From: Candidatus Saccharimonadota bacterium
GTDB lineage: Bacteria; Patescibacteriota; Saccharimonadia; Saccharimonadales; UBA4665
Direction: 5' to 3'
Assembly: GCA_027459325.1 (NCBI GenBank)
Contig: DAIDIO010000002.1
Span: 1,951-65,950, forward strand
DNA: 64,000 bases
The notes under the pieces are model-generated. The model had not been told where the DNA came from, searched no databases, and saw only the letters and a program-made list of their open reading frames with translations. Every line of letters starts with the position of its first letter. Positions within the stretch are counted from its first letter, which is position 1. Shown here one piece after another: positions 24,226 through 30,581 of the stretch. A program made the position numbers and the translations under genes.

Positions 24226-25272
24226 CTATTCTTCAGAAAGTGCGTAAGTGGCTTTAGCTACCCGTTTGAACTGCGGTTTACCTTGAAGGTTAAGAAGGAT
24301 GGTAGTTTCTTTTACAAATCTACTCTTTAGTACTCTTTTTACTATTTCGTCACGATGTAGGGGCTCGCCGGCTTCTCTAAGAACTTCAGAAATAATGTCG
24401 GCTACTGTTCCCTTTTCATATCCCCATTCTTTTAGTGCGTAGATTCCTCTACCGATCAGGACGAATCTCTTGTCTTTAATAAGTTCGTTATGGATTGCCT
24501 GGGTGGTTACATCCTTGCGCTTAAAGTCGCTTTCTTTAATAGCGGCAGCGATTTCATTAAAGTGCATGTGTTTACCATTCTCGCTTAAGATAACGTATAT
24601 CTTGTCACGAATGTTCTTTGGGTTAACCATTGGCCATTTAACCAGTCCCCAGCGGTTGTTAAGGGTTGCTAGCTGCTTAGAAGTGCTGGCAAGTGCCTCG
24701 GCCTGTTTAGGGTCAGTCAAGCCGGCAATTTTGGCTATTTCGCTGATGGTATTAGGTTCGCCTAAAGTCTTTATTGTGCTAATAATTTTCTCAACATTAC
24801 TCTTAAGGGTTTTCTCGTCGAACGAAGCCTTAATGGCTACGCTGTTATAGTAGTTGTCGTCTTCAGCGATAACACTCAGAGAGGGGCATAACTGGGCTAA
24901 AAAGGCTACTCGAGACTGCTCTTCCCTGCCTGGATCAGTAGTTATTTCGCTAGTGATCAGACTAACCCGAGCAACTTGTCCATGGCCTTGTAAGATCTCA
25001 ATCAGCTTAGCTTCAAAAGTAGCCAGCTCCGGGTTGCTGGCGCCCTGGTCCGGCATGGAACGAAGTTTTGTCACTACTGATTTTTCCAGCTGTCTGACTC
25101 GTTCCCTGGTAATACCTAAGGTTTCGCCAATCTGCTCAAGAGTTTCCTTTCTCTCGAACAGGCCGAATCGGCGGGCAACAATTTCCCGTTCCCTTTCCCG
25201 GTCAATTGTGCCTAAAACTGAAGTAACTAATTCCTCCGTAGAGCTGGTCAAAACTGGCTTAGCTTGGGTCAT
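24226..25272 (-). CDS. sigma-70 region-4 HTH plus HARE-HTH domain protein
   Basis: Contains RRFGL...TLEQIGETLGITRERVRQLE (sigma region 4) and a C-terminal MHFNEIAAAI...GRGIYALKEW (HARE-HTH, as in the RNAP delta subunit). Confidence 0.6.
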   Translation of the reverse strand: MTQAKPVLTSSTEELVTSVLGTIDREREREIVARRFGLFERKETLEQIGETLGITRERVRQLEKSVVTKLRSMPDQGASNPELATFEAKLIEILQGHGQVARVSLITSEITTDPGREEQSRVAFLAQLCPSLSVIAEDDNYYNSVAIKASFDEKTLKSNVEKIISTIKTLGEPNTISEIAKIAGLTDPKQAEALASTSKQLATLNNRWGLVKWPMVNPKNIRDKIYVILSENGKHMHFNEIAAAIKESDFKRKDVTTQAIHNELIKDKRFVLIGRGIYALKEWGYEKGTVADIISEVLREAGEPLHRDEIVKRVLKSRFVKETTILLNLQGKPQFKRVAKATYALSEE

Positions 25273-25483: not shown

Positions 25484-27781
25484 CTATTTAGTAGATTTAC
25501 GGGTTTTTCGTTTAAAGCGGGACTTTTTAGCAGGCGCTTTATCCAGTAGTTCCTTGGCCTGCTGCTCTGTTATATTACTGGGTTCAACATCTTTCGCTAT
25601 TCTTGCATTTTTTTTGCCGTCGGTTACGTATGGTCCGTAAGGACCGTTTAAGATTTTTATGCCGCTACTGAATTCTTTTATATTCTTGGCTGCCTCTTTA
25701 TCCAGTTTTTCTTCATATAATTTTCTGGCTTCGTCTTCAGTTATAGTATGTGGATCGAGCGGTTTTATAGAGACGTATAGCTTGCCGACTTGAATATATG
25801 GACCGAATCTACCGATGTTAGCTTTAATGTCCTCACCCCCTGTTGTTTTCCCTACTAGTCTGGGCAGTTTAAACATTTCCAGGGCTTGTTCTAGCGTAAC
25901 GGTATCAAGTGTAGTCCCAGCGGGCATTGGTGCAAAAATAGGCTTTTTTTCAGTATCTTCGGTGTCGCCTTTAAGTAACATCGGGCCATAACGACCAAAT
26001 CGGGCATAAATAATCTGTCCATCACTGGGGTCAACTCCTAATTCGCGGGCTTGAGACACTTCATTACGGGATATGTCTGCCGAGCTTTCAACGAGGGGAT
26101 GGAAGTCTTTATAGAAGTTGGCGATCATTTGGTTCCAGACTTCTTTGCCTTCAGCAATGTTATCGAATTCTTGCTCGGCTTTAGCGGTAAAAGCATAATC
26201 GACAATGGCCGGGAAATACTTAACCAAGAAGTCAGTTACTACTTCGGCTACCCCAGTTGGAAGCAGTTTGGCTTTATCGGCGCCGGTAGTTACTAGCGAT
26301 TTCGTCTCGGTGATTTCTTTATTTTTAAGAAGGAGTTCATTAACTTCCCGTTCGCTACCAACTACATCGGTTTTTTCAACATAACCCCTACTTTGAATGG
26401 TTGAGATGGTCGGTGCGTAAGTACTTGGTCTGCCGATGCCTAATTCTTCGAGTTTGCGGACCAGGCTGGCTTCGGAGTATCTGGCCGGCGGTCGAGAAAA
26501 GCTTTCAGTTGCCCTAATTTCTTTTGCTAGTAGCTGCTGGTTAGGCCTAAGACTAGGCAAAATAACGTCGTCTTTGCTGCCGCCGTAAACTTTCATGAAG
26601 CCATCAAAGCGTAGTACTTCTCCTTTGGCTATGAAGTTTTCCTTTTGATTACTAATGGCTATAAGTACTTCAGTGCGTTCTAGCTCGGCGGGGCTCATTT
26701 GACTGGCCACTGCACGGCGCCAAATAAGGCCGTAGAGCCGTTTTTGAGCTTCATCAGCGCCAGCTACCTGGCGGGCGACATTTGTCGGTCTAATCGCCTC
26801 GTGAGCCTCTTGGGCGCTCTGGTTCTTAGTCTTGTATTGCCGGTATTTATAGTATTTCTGGCCGTATTCTGAAACTATATGCTGTTTTATGCTGTCAGTG
26901 GCTTGTTTGGATAAGATAGTGCTATCGGTACGCATGTAAGTTATATGCCCTGCTTCGTATAAGCGCTGTGCCAGAGTCATTGTTTGACGAACACTGTAAC
27001 CTAACCGACGACTGGCCTCTTGTTGCAGGGTGCTGGTTGTGAATGGTGCGCTTGGGCTGCGCATACCGGGATTAGTTTTAATGTCGCTTATGGTGAAACG
27101 GGCAGCTTTGACTTTATCTAGCCATTCATGGGCGTGAGTGATATTGTCTAGTTTTTCAGATAATTCAGCAGGTAGCTCGGTGCCGTCAGCATCGAAGATG
27201 GCGGTAACCTTATAGCTGCTTTCGGTAGCAAACTCTTTGATTTCCCTTTCCCGCTCAACAATCAGGCGAACGGCAACCGATTGAACGCGTCCAGCTGACA
27301 GTCCGCCCTTGACCTTCTTCCATAATACCGGTGACAATTCGTAACCTACCAGCCGGTCGAGCACTCGCCTGGCCTGTTGAGCTTCTACCAGTTTAATGTC
27401 AACGTTTCGGGGGTTTTTTATAGCCTCTTCGATGGCTGGCTTGGTAATTTCGTGAAAAACGATTCTTTTAGTTGTTTTAGGATCGAGTGACAGAGCCTGG
27501 GTTAAATGCCAGGCAATAGCCTCGCCTTCACGGTCTTCATCGCTGGCTAACCAGACATCTTTGTTTTTAGCTGCAGATTTTAGCTCACTAACGACTTTCT
27601 TTTTATCCGGACTGATTTCATATTTCGGTTCAAATCCATGGTCAATGTCTATACTCAGTCCTTTTTTAGGTAAATCTCTAATATGGCCAAAGCTACTCAT
27701 TACCGAGTAGTCTTTACCAAGAAAGTTCTCGATGGTTTTGGCTTTAGCCGGGCTTTCAACTATTACTAAATTTTTTGCCAT
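25484..27781 (-). CDS. topA: DNA topoisomerase I
   Basis: TOPRIM domain (LVIVESPAKAKTI) and active-site YMRTDS. The C-terminus carries RFGPY-type repeats with no Cys4 zinc ribbons. Confidence 0.95.
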   Translation of the reverse strand: MAKNLVIVESPAKAKTIENFLGKDYSVMSSFGHIRDLPKKGLSIDIDHGFEPKYEISPDKKKVVSELKSAAKNKDVWLASDEDREGEAIAWHLTQALSLDPKTTKRIVFHEITKPAIEEAIKNPRNVDIKLVEAQQARRVLDRLVGYELSPVLWKKVKGGLSAGRVQSVAVRLIVEREREIKEFATESSYKVTAIFDADGTELPAELSEKLDNITHAHEWLDKVKAARFTISDIKTNPGMRSPSAPFTTSTLQQEASRRLGYSVRQTMTLAQRLYEAGHITYMRTDSTILSKQATDSIKQHIVSEYGQKYYKYRQYKTKNQSAQEAHEAIRPTNVARQVAGADEAQKRLYGLIWRRAVASQMSPAELERTEVLIAISNQKENFIAKGEVLRFDGFMKVYGGSKDDVILPSLRPNQQLLAKEIRATESFSRPPARYSEASLVRKLEELGIGRPSTYAPTISTIQSRGYVEKTDVVGSEREVNELLLKNKEITETKSLVTTGADKAKLLPTGVAEVVTDFLVKYFPAIVDYAFTAKAEQEFDNIAEGKEVWNQMIANFYKDFHPLVESSADISRNEVSQARELGVDPSDGQIIYARFGRYGPMLLKGDTEDTEKKPIFAPMPAGTTLDTVTLEQALEMFKLPRLVGKTTGGEDIKANIGRFGPYIQVGKLYVSIKPLDPHTITEDEARKLYEEKLDKEAAKNIKEFSSGIKILNGPYGPYVTDGKKNARIAKDVEPSNITEQQAKELLDKAPAKKSRFKRKTRKSTK

Positions 27782-27846
27782 AGTCAGTCATCCATATAAA
27801 CTTAAAAGTATAATAAATGCAACTAAAATATCTATCGGTTTGAAGT

Positions 27847-28029
27847 TTAGATATTGATATAGTCGTCGATTCTTTTGTAGATCCAAATACCCAAAGGTAT
27901 ACCAAGCAAACCAAAAACTATGCTGAGGACGCCAAGTTCTTTACCATGATCAAGCGCTGCCCCGATATAACTGGTAATAGTACTGACTATCAGAACTAGG
28001 CCGCTCTTTACTAATCTTTGCATATTCAT
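27847..28029 (-). CDS. small two-TM membrane protein
   Basis: 60 aa with two hydrophobic helices. Confidence 0.35.
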   Translation of the reverse strand: MNMQRLVKSGLVLIVSTITSYIGAALDHGKELGVLSIVFGLLGIPLGIWIYKRIDDYINI

Positions 28030-28128
28030 GAGCTAGAACTAGTCTAGCATGAGCATTAGCTTTTATGCACCTTAATCTGTAATAAAAACATAAGCTTCTT
28101 GATAATTATTAAAATACATTATAAAGTA

Positions 28129-28157
28129 TTGACTTTAGAACATGAATTTGCTAGAAT
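28129..28157 (+). promoter_or_regulatory. near-consensus sigma70-type promoter
   Basis: TTGACT (28129-28134), a 17-nt spacer, then TAGAAT (28152-28157). There is no plus-strand CDS downstream. Confidence 0.55.
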
Positions 28158-28163
28158 AGCAAC

Positions 28164-28575
28164 TTGTGATTCCGCTAAGACGGAATTCAAGCACCTTTTA
28201 CCCCCATTCTAACGTCTAACTCTTAAAACAAGAGATAGACATTAAGTTAGATTGTTTTAGAGCGCGCCATAAGAAAAGTTGTTACCCTCCACTTCTCTTT
28301 AATAAGCATGTTTAGGGGCAACCCTAAACACGCTCTAAAACATACTAACCCCTTTAACTAGATTCCTCGGATTTTTTTAAGTCCCCGGGGTCCCCGTCAG
28401 AAGTGAGCCTAAACGGTAGCTTTGAAGTTGACTTCAAGGCTGACACAGTCATCTTATATGTTCGACATGATGTTTCGCTGGGGTGGGTTGAAGGGTAATT
28501 CCTTGGGGCAAACAAGTTTTGTCCCTAGTAACAGGCTAACGAGCGGTGCCCACCCCCTCTCGTTGGCCTGTTTTT
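28164..28575 (+). ncRNA. candidate structured non-coding RNA (about 410 nt), family not recognised
   Basis: The region is bounded by the promoter above and an intrinsic terminator: AGGCTAACGAG 28533-28543 pairs with CTCGTTGGCCT 28559-28569, followed by GTTTTT. Internal structure includes:
- a 5' hairpin at 28163-28191;
- a hairpin at 28208-28251;
- an 11-bp long-range pairing, GTTTTAGAGCG 28254-28264 with CGCTCTAAAAC 28331-28341;
- a GCAA-tetraloop hairpin at 28310-28329;
- hairpins at 28419-28440 and 28505-28525;
- GGGGTGGG 28480-28487, complementary to CCCACCCC 28549-28556 in the terminator loop.
No ORF of 60 aa or more is present. Confidence 0.5.
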
Positions 28576-28578
28576 AGT

Positions 28579-29220
28579 TTAAATTAGGAAACTTCGGGTA
28601 TCTTGGGGTAAACTGCCGCCAAAGATGTATTCACTAATGATTGATAGAGTTTCCCGGCTTAGATTATTAAGCTCAGATAGCTCAGTTTTATTGAATTTCT
28701 GAAGCACAAAATCTTCTGATGGTATCTGTTCAGGACTTTTTGGTCCAATACCTATCCGTACCCGGCCGTAGTTTTCGCCAATGGCCTTTGAGATAGACTT
28801 AATACCATTGTGACCACCACTGCTGCCACCTATACGCAAACGGATCTGACCGAAGTTAATATCTAGATCATCATGAATTACCAGGATATGCTCGGGGCTT
28901 ATATGATAGAACTGAGACACTTCTAACACCGCTTCCCCGCTGAGGTTCATATAAGTAGTTGGTTTAATTGCAATTACTTTGGTAGCGTTCATGCTGCCTT
29001 CGCTTACATGGGCTTTAAAGTTTTTCTTTAGGATCCAACCACTCATTTCATCTGTTTTTTCGACAAATTCATCAATGCAGTAAAAGCCGATATTGTGGCG
29101 GGTCAGGTCATATTTGGTTTCGGGATTGCCGAGCCCTACCAGCAGTATGGTTTTATTAAGCCCGATAGTATAAAAGCTGGCATTATCGGTAACCTGTGGT
29201 CGTCTTTGAAGCCACCCCAT
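28579..29220 (-). CDS. pth: peptidyl-tRNA hydrolase
   Basis: Contains GLGNPETKYDLTRHNIGF. It has an N-terminal extension of about 25 aa if the track start is used. Confidence 0.9.
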   Translation of the reverse strand: MGWLQRRPQVTDNASFYTIGLNKTILLVGLGNPETKYDLTRHNIGFYCIDEFVEKTDEMSGWILKKNFKAHVSEGSMNATKVIAIKPTTYMNLSGEAVLEVSQFYHISPEHILVIHDDLDINFGQIRLRIGGSSGGHNGIKSISKAIGENYGRVRIGIGPKSPEQIPSEDFVLQKFNKTELSELNNLSRETLSIISEYIFGGSLPQDTRSFLI

Positions 29221-29222
29221 AA

Positions 29223-30581
29223 CTACTTTGAAACCTCTTTAGTTGGGCTGACGCCATGTTTATGGGCGACATGCTTTTCGATAAACCACAGCTGGACAGG
29301 CGTTCCCTCAAAGCCAAACGCTTCACGCATTCGGGTTTCTAAATAGCGTTTATAGCTCCAGTGAATGAATTTGGTTGAACTGCCGAAGATTTTGAAAGCT
29401 GGTATAGGATTATCTGTTTCCTGGACAATGTAATTAAGTTTAGGATTCCGATTCTTTAAACCGGCTGGCGGATGAGCCAGAATAGCCAGTTTTAACCAAC
29501 GGTTTAAGGTGCTGGTGGGAATTCGGGTTTGCCGGGCTCTCTCTATATCTAGTGCCAGGTCAAATATCTTAGTGACGTTCTGACCGGTCACGCTACTAGT
29601 GAAGATAAGTGGTGCCCAAGGGGCAAATTCAAAGTTAGCAGCAATTTGAGGTGCCAGCGCGTCCCGAGTGAAGGCGTCTTTGTCTTTAACGGCGTCCCAC
29701 TTGCTGACAACCAGAATCAGGCCCTTACCAGCGTCTTTAATCATGCCGGCAATTTTTTGGTCTAGCTGGACATTAAGTTCATTAACGTCCATGAGCATTA
29801 AACAGACATCAGCTTCCTCAATGGCACTGAGCGCCCGGATGACACTGAACTTTTCAACTCCAACCTTAATCTTGCCACTTCGCCTGATACCGGCAGTATC
29901 CAGGATTGCTACTTCTCTCCCCTTATATTTAATAATGGCGCGGTTAACATCCCGGGTTGTGCCGGCCCGGTCGGCAACAATGGCCTGCTGCTTTTTAGCC
30001 AGGGTGTTAAATAGATAAGATTTACCGACGTTTGGCCGACCTAAAATTGCGATCGTAAACCGGTCACTATCGTCAAAGTCCGTTACTTTTGGGATTTCTT
30101 CAGATAAATGAGTTAGCAGGTCACTGATGCCGCGGTTTTGTGTCGCTGAGGTAAAAAATATGGGTTTAATGCCCAGACGTTCAAAATTATGGGTCGATTT
30201 GCCGGCTTTATCTATCTTGTTAACAATTAAATAAACCGGCTTTTTACTTTTTAGGGCAAGCTTGGCTACCCGTCTATCTTCTTCGGTAATCGGCACATCG
30301 GCCTCTACTACTACCCAGATAATATCGGCGCTGTCGGCGGCTTGAATGATCTGTTCCTGAATGGTAAATTCAAAATCGTCTTCCGGATCTTTAATTCCAG
30401 CAGTATCAACCAACCAAAAATGGTGGTTGTTTATCTCGGCTTTGGCCATGACGGAGTCGCGGGTTGTTCCCGCTTCCCTTGCTACGATTGCCTCTCTACG
30501 ATCTAATATTGAGTTAAATAGACTAGATTTTCCGACATTGGCTCTACCGACAATTGCTATAATTGGTAGTTTCTTAGACAC
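29223..30581 (-). CDS. der: ribosome-associated GTPase Der/EngA
   Basis: Two tandem GTPase domains (GRANVGKSSLFN and GRPNVGKSYLFN) plus a KH-like C-terminus. Confidence 0.93.
   Translation of the reverse strand: MSKKLPIIAIVGRANVGKSSLFNSILDRREAIVAREAGTTRDSVMAKAEINNHHFWLVDTAGIKDPEDDFEFTIQEQIIQAADSADIIWVVVEADVPITEEDRRVAKLALKSKKPVYLIVNKIDKAGKSTHNFERLGIKPIFFTSATQNRGISDLLTHLSEEIPKVTDFDDSDRFTIAILGRPNVGKSYLFNTLAKKQQAIVADRAGTTRDVNRAIIKYKGREVAILDTAGIRRSGKIKVGVEKFSVIRALSAIEEADVCLMLMDVNELNVQLDQKIAGMIKDAGKGLILVVSKWDAVKDKDAFTRDALAPQIAANFEFAPWAPLIFTSSVTGQNVTKIFDLALDIERARQTRIPTSTLNRWLKLAILAHPPAGLKNRNPKLNYIVQETDNPIPAFKIFGSSTKFIHWSYKRYLETRMREAFGFEGTPVQLWFIEKHVAHKHGVSPTKEVSK

Follow-up and report, generated by a model that had tools for sequence, protein, structure and literature searches.

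A conserved structured RNA gene in the pth-topA interval of Saccharimonadales, candidate for a new class of large non-coding RNA in bacteria

The 64,000-nt stretch analysed here (contig DAIDIO010000002.1 of assembly GCA_027459325.1, Candidatus Saccharimonadota, forward-strand positions 1,951 to 65,950; hereafter the window) carries between topA and pth, at positions 28162-28575 of the plus strand, what is very probably a real and independently transcribed gene for a structured non-coding RNA (ncRNA) of ~400 nt that belongs to a conserved family. An earlier note, made from the letters of the window, had described a highly structured RNA of ~410 nt with its own promoter and terminator, and conservation, synteny and covariation support that description. 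Where the note wavered between a very divergent housekeeping RNA and a novel large ncRNA, the evidence selects the latter, since no Rfam family matches, the motifs of the known RNAs are essentially absent and the topology differs. The family, which is not in Rfam 15 and is apparently undescribed, is put forward as a candidate new class of large bacterial ncRNA, and its sequence hallmarks point to constitutive strong promotion, terminator-bounded transcription, a compact fold and strong purifying selection. The mechanism offered below as part of the best explanation is rather doubtful; gene, family and mechanism taken together as one account are judged moderately probable.

The promoter read in the earlier note, TTGACT and TAGAAT separated by 17 nt, occupies positions 28129-28157 of the plus strand, scores 10/12, includes the TG of an extended -10 element and is the best promoter-like site in a 1.8-kb scan. 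The arrangement TTGACn-16/17-TGnTAnnnT is kept in 112/112 family sequences, with a spacer of 17 nt (108 sequences) or 16 nt (4 sequences). The -35 box (28129-28134) reads TTGACA in 103 members, TTGACT in 8 and TTGACC in 1, while the TG and TAnnnT of the extended -10 element (TGcTAGAAT, 28149-28157, in the window) are found in all 112. With its start placed from the -10 position and its end from the U-tract, the transcript would extend from 28162 to 28575 and measure ~414 nt; family members range from 318 to 590 nt with a median of 399 nt (112 sequences), and the U-tract is present in 110/112. The terminator hairpin that precedes the U-tract (28528-28573), likewise proposed before, appears in the minimum free energy (MFE) fold with 14 outer pairs and has a covarying stem; a simple terminator scanner passed over it because its loop is longer than 8 nt. 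The helices of the family contain 1037 G-U pairs against 216 A-C mismatches, a ratio that identifies the plus strand as the transcribed one. These signals indicate a stand-alone gene with its own near-consensus sigma-70 extended -10 promoter and intrinsic terminator. At locus L176 (878-923, minus strand), ~700 nt beyond the RNA's own terminator, there is an isolated second terminator hairpin with the same invariant loop, AGCCUCCAGCGGUGCCCACCCCCUCUGGAGGCUCUUUUUUU, and without the rest of the RNA, suggesting that the hairpin module can duplicate on its own.

Conservation was followed from the neighbouring protein and from the RNA itself. An nhmmer search with the window region as query revealed the full element, from promoter to terminator, in 7/7 Saccharibacteria loci fetched via Pth peptides (E = 1e-28 to 1e-38), each time downstream of pth on the opposite strand. 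The RNA is also present in 11/11 further loci fetched by Pth homologues alone, and each of the 19 Saccharimonadales loci obtained solely by way of Pth carries it. Among these 19 protein-retrieved loci, GGUGGG and UUGAAGGG of an internal G-rich strand are intact in every case, as is the 15-nt loop of the terminator hairpin (28544-28558, CGGUGCCCACCCCCU). A metagenome motif scan, whose pattern of two invariant 3' motifs fixed GGTGGG, TTGAAGGG and GGTGCCCACCCCC, gave at least 120 loci with the RNA in every one listed; 106 of those listed are full length, and collapsing at 92% identity reduced them to 101. The closest relatives by Pth peptides are metagenome-assembled genomes labelled Candidatus Saccharibacteria or Saccharimonadales (47-58% identity), and closer Pth homologues (62-85% identity) are, where named, mostly "Candidatus Saccharimonadales bacterium". 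Pth has diverged to 43-85% identity while the RNA keeps a near-perfect promoter, ~100 near-invariant nucleotides and its chromosomal position. The RNA is conserved throughout soil and groundwater Saccharibacteria, and across Candidatus Saccharimonadales (Patescibacteria).

The gap between the flanking genes spans 549 bp (28030-28578). As the earlier note had it, the ORF list shows no open reading frame (ORF) of 60 aa or more in this gap, the longest being 53 aa on the minus strand and 51 aa on the plus strand, and the flanking genes topA (25484-27781) and pth (28579-29220), both supported by Pfam matches, lie on the minus strand. Across the family the RNA occupies a fixed slot between pth-der-rluB on one side and topA, preceded by dprA or a 60-aa ORF, on the other, antisense to all of them. 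In 79/79 loci with enough flank pth is encoded 3' of the RNA on the other strand, and in 59/59 topA is encoded 5' of it, again on the other strand. In the interval from RNA to pth, clustering picked up nothing beyond pth and its antisense shadows, gap sequences are not conserved, and the genes inserted there differ by locus. Phage and plasmid collections gave no match to the RNA, and the locus does not appear to be borne by a mobile element.

This arrangement bears on whether the RNA could instead be a cis-acting element, either a convergent antisense or terminator module for pth or a riboswitch-like leader acting on downstream genes by read-through, maybe one that switches between pairings of its G-rich strand. 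Such a role is improbable. It is true that the terminator abuts the stop codon of pth (~3 nt apart in the window, -8 to +25 nt in several loci) and that a same-strand ORF follows the RNA in a few loci (L166, L109, L143). Nevertheless, RNA and pth are anywhere between -8 and 3766 nt apart, unrelated genes in both orientations being inserted while the RNA itself is unchanged, and there is no conserved downstream same-strand gene, the 3' neighbour being the convergent pth in each of the 79 loci. A 400-nt RNA with ~100 near-invariant positions also far exceeds what a terminator needs.

The plus strand is predicted to fold with an MFE of -148.7 kcal/mol, a z-score of -8.5 against dinucleotide shuffles that was equalled by 0/100 of them, compared with a z-score of -5.5 for the minus strand. 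RNAalifold was run on 98 sequences, and per-pair counts revealed covariation in nearly every helix; in an all-against-all mutual-information scan the top pairs fall almost all inside predicted helices. A pair-count test used alignment A3, which holds 63 sequences of <80% identity, and compared 95 pairs with 500 shuffles and with slides by 1-3 columns. Paired cells amount to 89.5% (shuffled 79.7%, slid 38-51%); of the 95 pairs, 66 change on both sides (shuffled 43.9, slid 36-48); and the covariation score is 0.309 (shuffled 0.142, slid 0.06-0.10). None of the 500 shuffles reached the observed value on any of the five measures. Strong covariation, well above the controls, supports the secondary structure.

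The predicted fold comprises, in order, the 5' hairpin P1; the P3 domain, which contains P4; a 9-bp long-range helix that abuts P3 and encloses P5x and a three-way junction; P6; and P7. Several variable hairpins sit at fixed insertion points. P1 (28165-28191), in which 8/9 pairs change on both sides, is followed by the conserved 5' linker CACCUUUUACCCCCAUUCUAAC (28192-28213), a segment without a covariation-supported partner, and by the variable hairpin Pv1 (28214-28241), which many members lack and which shows compensatory changes among close relatives. The P3 domain (28246-28349) is closed by a helix of which the earlier note had recognised 11 bp (28254-64/28331-41) and which extends to 18 bp (28246-64/28331-49), is 95-97% paired and has 13/18 pairs changing on both sides. 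It encloses two hairpins, P4 and Pv2. P4 (28276-28294) has an AAGU/ACUU stem and an invariant 11-nt loop, UGUUACCCUCC, which has no supported intramolecular partner and whose UACCCUC is invariant in 63/63 sequences. Pv2 (28310-28329) carries in the window the GCAA cap that had been noted earlier and, like the other internal hairpins then described, is present in the MFE fold; as a family feature, though, it is variable, its position being conserved while sequence and length vary.

The long-range helix pairs 28350-28358 (CCCUUUAAC) with 28487-28495 (GUUGAAGGG) over 9 bp and is 99.1% paired. At its terminal pair 105 of 114 sequences have C:G and 9 have G:C, with 0 mismatches, corresponding to ~4 independent switches by parsimony on a neighbour-joining tree; the helix was also predicted independently by RNAalifold on 7 close relatives. 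Inside it lie the variable hairpin Pv3 (28361-28391), absent in some members, and P5x, whose 5' strand CCCCG (28392-28396) pairs with UGGGG (28479-28483). P5x occurs in the matched variants CCCCA:UGGGG, CCCCG:CGGGG, CCCGG:UCGGG and CCCGA:UCGGG. Its duplex energy is -5.47 with its own partner and -4.68±0.11 with shuffled partners, and a fully complementary stretch is found with the own partner in 52/82 sequences against 43.9±2.4 with shuffled ones (maximum 51 in 500). The three-way-junction domain P5 (28402-28479) has 20/21 pairs that change on both sides and consists of P5 proper (28403-06/28475-78), P5a (28407-17), P5b (28418-41) and P5c (28442-74). The invariant G-rich strand GGGGUGGGUUGAAGGG (28480-28495) serves both long-range elements, 28480-83 pairing with 28392-95 and 28487-95 with 28350-58. 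P6 (28504-28526) is 96% paired, with 8/8 pairs changing on both sides, and is dispensable, being absent from L208, L209 and L211. P7, the intrinsic terminator hairpin with its U-tract (28528-28575), has 12/14 pairs that change on both sides.

Around 8 of the 63 members of A3 have a different central domain. This subtype with a replaced P5 domain comprises rows L173, L180, L106, L083, L086, L137, L126 and L107 (columns ~450-650), and the replacement starts with AACCCCGYAUUCCCCCUCGUUUU and ends with GGAGGCCUUCAAGGUGGG. Three of these members, L106, L126 and L107, have an extra insertion of ~30 nt in the 3' strand of P3.

Several other pairings were weighed and rejected. The perfect complementarity between 28480-87 and the terminator loop (28549-56), from which a pseudoknot had been proposed, is real, but the pseudoknot does not covary and competes with covarying nested helices that occupy the G-rich strand; the loop is fixed, whereas the two outermost G positions are variable. 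The complementarity may persist as an alternative or intermolecular contact. A tertiary pairing suggested between 28281-90 and 28489-98 retains 7 contiguous pairs (28282-88/28492-98), but shows no covariation, fails at its outermost pair in 34/63 sequences and has a 3' partner that is used by the 28350-58 helix. A 5'-closing helix given by RNAalifold (28192-97/28492-97 plus 28200-05/28481-88) covaries no better than shuffles, its partners are used elsewhere and the C-run of the 5' linker is deleted in L002-L004. These three pairings are 89-95% complementary, with covariation no better than that of shuffles, and lose out because the two covarying long-range helices use up the G-rich strand 28480-95. 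A hairpin UCUAAC/GUUAGA (28208-13/28246-51) is compatible with the fold, but shows one-sided changes only, the change of G28246 to A being compensated by its P3 partner.

The 5' linker is complementary to 28246-51 and to 28487-96, possible alternative pairings that are 91-96% paired and covary no better than shuffles. Its elements (ACCUUUUAC...UUCUAAC) are near-copies, in swapped order, of the junction strand 28344-28358 (ACUAAC-CCCUUUAAC). In principle, the linker could displace the junction strand from the base of P3 and from the long-range helix, as a folding intermediate or a switch; covariation for such a displacement of 28344-28358 was not found. The complementarity of the G-rich strand 28480-95 to four conserved C-rich segments and the mimicry of the junction strand by the 5' linker are typical switch features and, as such, favour the cis-acting reading considered above, but only one of the competing pairings is backed by covariation.

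The same data address the idea that a small protein gene, or a decayed pseudogene such as a dprA remnant, explains the gap, for which there is next to no probability left. Public gene calls do place ORFs over the RNA on the minus strand of L202 (2953-3333, 126 aa) and L203 (2219-2563, 114 aa), and dprA is missing from the window while present in most loci. These called ORFs have no Pfam match and are probably annotation artefacts arising from the unannotated RNA, and loci with dprA carry the RNA as well, adjoining dprA. Spacer lengths between anchor motifs show no modulo-3 bias, the window RNA is interrupted by 9-15 stops in each frame of both strands, and conservation takes the form of compensated helices, not codons. 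On these features the RNA is judged to be non-coding.

Rfam 15, searched at gathering thresholds and at E<=10 with the whole window, the RNA alone, 7 genome loci and 12 metagenome loci, returned no family match for the RNA, including the RNase P, tmRNA, SRP, 6S and large-ncRNA models that the earlier note had singled out. The matches obtained were tRNAs elsewhere and spurious hairpin types, namely miRNA precursors on P3 and leader or sRNA models on the terminator. In favour of a strongly diverged RNase P RNA are the similar size (~400 nt), the strong promoter of its own, clade-wide conservation, invariant blocks and long-range helices. RNase P RNAs of the candidate phyla radiation (CPR) can, moreover, score below Rfam thresholds: Lui et al. 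2021 (PMC8172020) lowered the RF00010 threshold to 5 bits for 10/35 circular CPR genomes, and the E<=10 limit used here would leave RF00010 matches of 5-12 bits unlisted. This identity is nevertheless very unlikely. There was no RF00010 or RF00011 match at E<=10 for the window RNA and 12 homologues. Among the 101 family members, the 5' strand of P4 (CR-I, GGAAAGUC; as DNA GGAAAGTC) occurs in none and AAAGUCC in one, and the 3' strand of P4 (CR-V, ACAGAA..GGCUUA) occurs in none, with ACAGAA alone in one. The ends of the RNA do not pair with each other, since a local covarying hairpin forms at the 5' end, next to the promoter, and the terminator hairpin at the 3' end, leaving no P1/P2-type closure. 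Where the purine-rich strand of P4 would be expected, following the first hairpin, there is a C/U-rich one, and such a topology is incompatible with RNase P RNA. Lui et al. (PMC8172020) also reported an RNase P RNA for every one of the 35 genomes, two of them from Saccharimonadia, with conserved features that could be recognised.

The RNA does resemble RNase P RNA, including its diverged CPR forms, in length, promoter, universality within its clade, invariant blocks, long-range helices and variable peripheral hairpins, and differs from it in the absence of CR-I and CR-V, the unpaired ends, the order of helices and the lack of a covariance-model match. The segments GGGUUGAAGGGUG and CUCCAC resemble the S-domain of E. 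coli RNase P RNA; no model supports the likeness, which we take to be coincidence.

Other housekeeping RNAs, that is a divergent tmRNA, SRP RNA or 6S RNA, share the clade-wide conservation and the strong constitutive promoter signals of the family, and 6S RNAs are poorly conserved in sequence and often missed by Rfam. They are as improbable an identity as RNase P RNA. ARAGORN found no tmRNA, no tag ORF was seen, the T-arm motif GGUUCGAnUCC occurs in 0/101 members and CCACCA in 2/101, and RF00023 gave no match. Motifs of SRP domain IV (helix 8) occur in 0/101, and neither RF00169 nor RF01854 matched; even weak Rfam matches to these RNAs are missing. 6S RNA (RF00013, no match) and Ms1 are alike in being housekeeping ncRNAs that look abundant and have a strong constitutive promoter, but form a single irregular rod with a central bubble, whereas the present RNA has three domains with junctions and, at a median of 399 nt, is twice as long as 6S RNA (~180 nt).

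Parallels also exist among the large structured ncRNAs of bacteria, whose functions are at best partly known. Like raiA, OLE, ROOL and GOLLD, the RNA is several hundred nucleotides long and lineage-restricted, combines covarying helices with long-range pairings and near-invariant unpaired blocks, and stands alone, with neighbouring genes that do not reveal its function. The covariance models of OLE, GOLLD, ROOL, HEARO and raiA gave no match at E<=10, and the hosts are Patescibacteria, not Bacillota, Actinomycetota or phages. In addition, the RNA sits in a fixed pth/topA housekeeping locus, unlike ROOL and GOLLD, which are found in prophages and next to tRNA genes, and unlike OLE, which lies in an operon with partner proteins. 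Size, invariant unpaired segments and a multi-junction fold, as in ribozymes and large ncRNAs, raise the prospect that the RNA is catalytic or forms an RNA-only self-assembling complex of the ROOL, GOLLD or OLE kind, not a binding scaffold. Large ornate ncRNAs are reported to form homo-oligomers, and the complementarity of the terminator and P4 loops to the G-rich strand could act in trans between copies. Set against this are the missing homology to ROOL, GOLLD and OLE and the lack of any prophage or tRNA-gene association; the idea is unlikely, less so than a cis-acting role.

A broader formulation, about which opinion is evenly poised, is that the RNA represents an undescribed housekeeping-grade class of large RNA, universal in Saccharimonadales and perhaps in wider Saccharibacteria, whose core function would be catalytic or that of a ribonucleoprotein subunit, maybe involving mimicry of the 16S rRNA 3' end. 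Its conservation would then be comparable to that of RNase P RNA, and the reduced genomes of its hosts would have lost the usual protein solutions.

In the preferred mechanism, the RNA would act in trans as an abundant stable RNA and not as a cis-regulator. Three invariant, single-stranded and C-rich elements, each lacking a partner within the molecule, would form its working surfaces, namely UGUUACCCUCC in the P4 loop, GGUGCCCACCCCCUC in the loop of the terminator and the partly dispensable 5' linker CACCUU..ACCCCCC. They are proposed as functional because the only G-rich strand is already paired. The 3' tail of 16S rRNA pairs with Shine-Dalgarno (SD) sequences and is bound by factors such as Era, and we presume a resemblance between the C-rich elements and its CACCUCC. 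As a scaffold or decoy, the RNA could bind either a G-rich RNA or a protein that recognises RNA which is C-rich or similar to the 16S 3' end, in a translation- or ribosome-related housekeeping role. The neighbours pth, der and rluB all serve translation, a link to the RNA that is purely one of position. In displaying several unpaired and conserved C-rich motifs (CCCUCC, CCCACCCCCUC, ACCCCCC), with the potential to pair with G-rich sequences such as ribosome-binding sites, the RNA is similar to the C-rich-loop sRNAs of the RsaE/RoxS type in Bacillota; it is four times larger than these, far more structured and without homology to them.

A version of this mechanism in which the RNA acts as an SD sponge was considered and rejected. 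Within 22 nt upstream of the longest-ORF starts in the window, GGAGG occurs in 3/62 and AGGA in 10/62, counts that rest on 62 long ORFs with crude, unrefined start calls, and no complementary target of >=9 nt was found at gene starts of the window. The apparent rarity of SD motifs favours, with low confidence, a protein-binding scaffold or decoy over an mRNA sponge. The commonest 5-mers upstream of window ORFs are A/T-rich.

Besides these SD counts, several points weigh against the account given here. Transcription, transcript ends and abundance are all read from sequence signals, and the likeness of the C-rich elements to the 16S rRNA tail is a presumed one. A search of the interval between RNA and pth and of the neighbouring genes gave no partner protein gene that consistently adjoins the RNA. 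Of the 139 loci, 120 came by the motif pattern, and the invariance of GGTGGG, TTGAAGGG and GGTGCCCACCCCC rests on the 19 protein-retrieved loci. The sample consists of Saccharimonadales, and the exclusion of an RNase P, tmRNA or SRP identity is based on members of this locus, not on a complete-genome scan of the clade.

The gene order on the topA side differs between the window's clade and other relatives. dprA (Pfam DNA_processg_A) lies between RNA and topA in most relatives and is absent there from the window and its closest relatives, as seen on comparing window 27782-28128 with L123 3108-3959, L208 5750-6613 and L209 5789-6640. In the window's clade a 58-60-aa ORF replaces it. The window copy (27847-28029, minus strand, MNMQRLVKSGLVLIVSTITSYIGAALDHGKELGVLSIVFGLLGIPLGIWIYKRIDDYINI), located between the RNA promoter and topA, is 60 aa long, has no Pfam match and looks like a small two-helix membrane protein. 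tblastn revealed homologues at 7 other loci (34-52% identity), and a gene of ~53-62 aa is called at its place in most Pth-fetched relatives (L201, L202, L204, L205, L208-L211). On the far side of topA from the RNA, a 348-aa protein (24226-25272, minus strand) combines Sigma70_r4 with a C-terminal HARE-HTH, an unusual combination for a sigma-like protein, and is conserved at that place in 24 related loci. Rfam also gave RAGATH-12 at the 5' end of der (30497-30571, minus strand; 27.3 bits vs a gathering threshold of 75, E = 0.22), a sub-threshold match that is probably due to chance. GUUUUAGAGC, in the 5' strand of P3 (28254-28263), equals the opening 10 nt of the type II-A CRISPR repeat of Streptococcus pyogenes, probably by coincidence, as neither cas genes nor repeats were noticed near it.

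No description of this RNA was found in the literature searched, and a preprint on the transcriptome of TM7x, the best-studied strain, describes that organism as lacking validated small RNAs. Saccharibacteria are now transformable and amenable to transposon sequencing (Tn-seq; PMC10633639). If cultivated strains carry the RNA, its essentiality, partners and structure would be open to study. A family model would also stop spurious ORF calls over the RNA and give a genome marker for Saccharimonadales. Much of bacterial diversity belongs to the Patescibacteria, which are for the most part uncultivated and whose genomes are tiny. It is uncommon for a large structured RNA to be newly found, and RNase P, OLE, ROOL, GOLLD and raiA each opened new biology. 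The conserved promoter, the ~100 near-invariant nucleotides and the fixed position suggest that this RNA is likely to be important to the cell.

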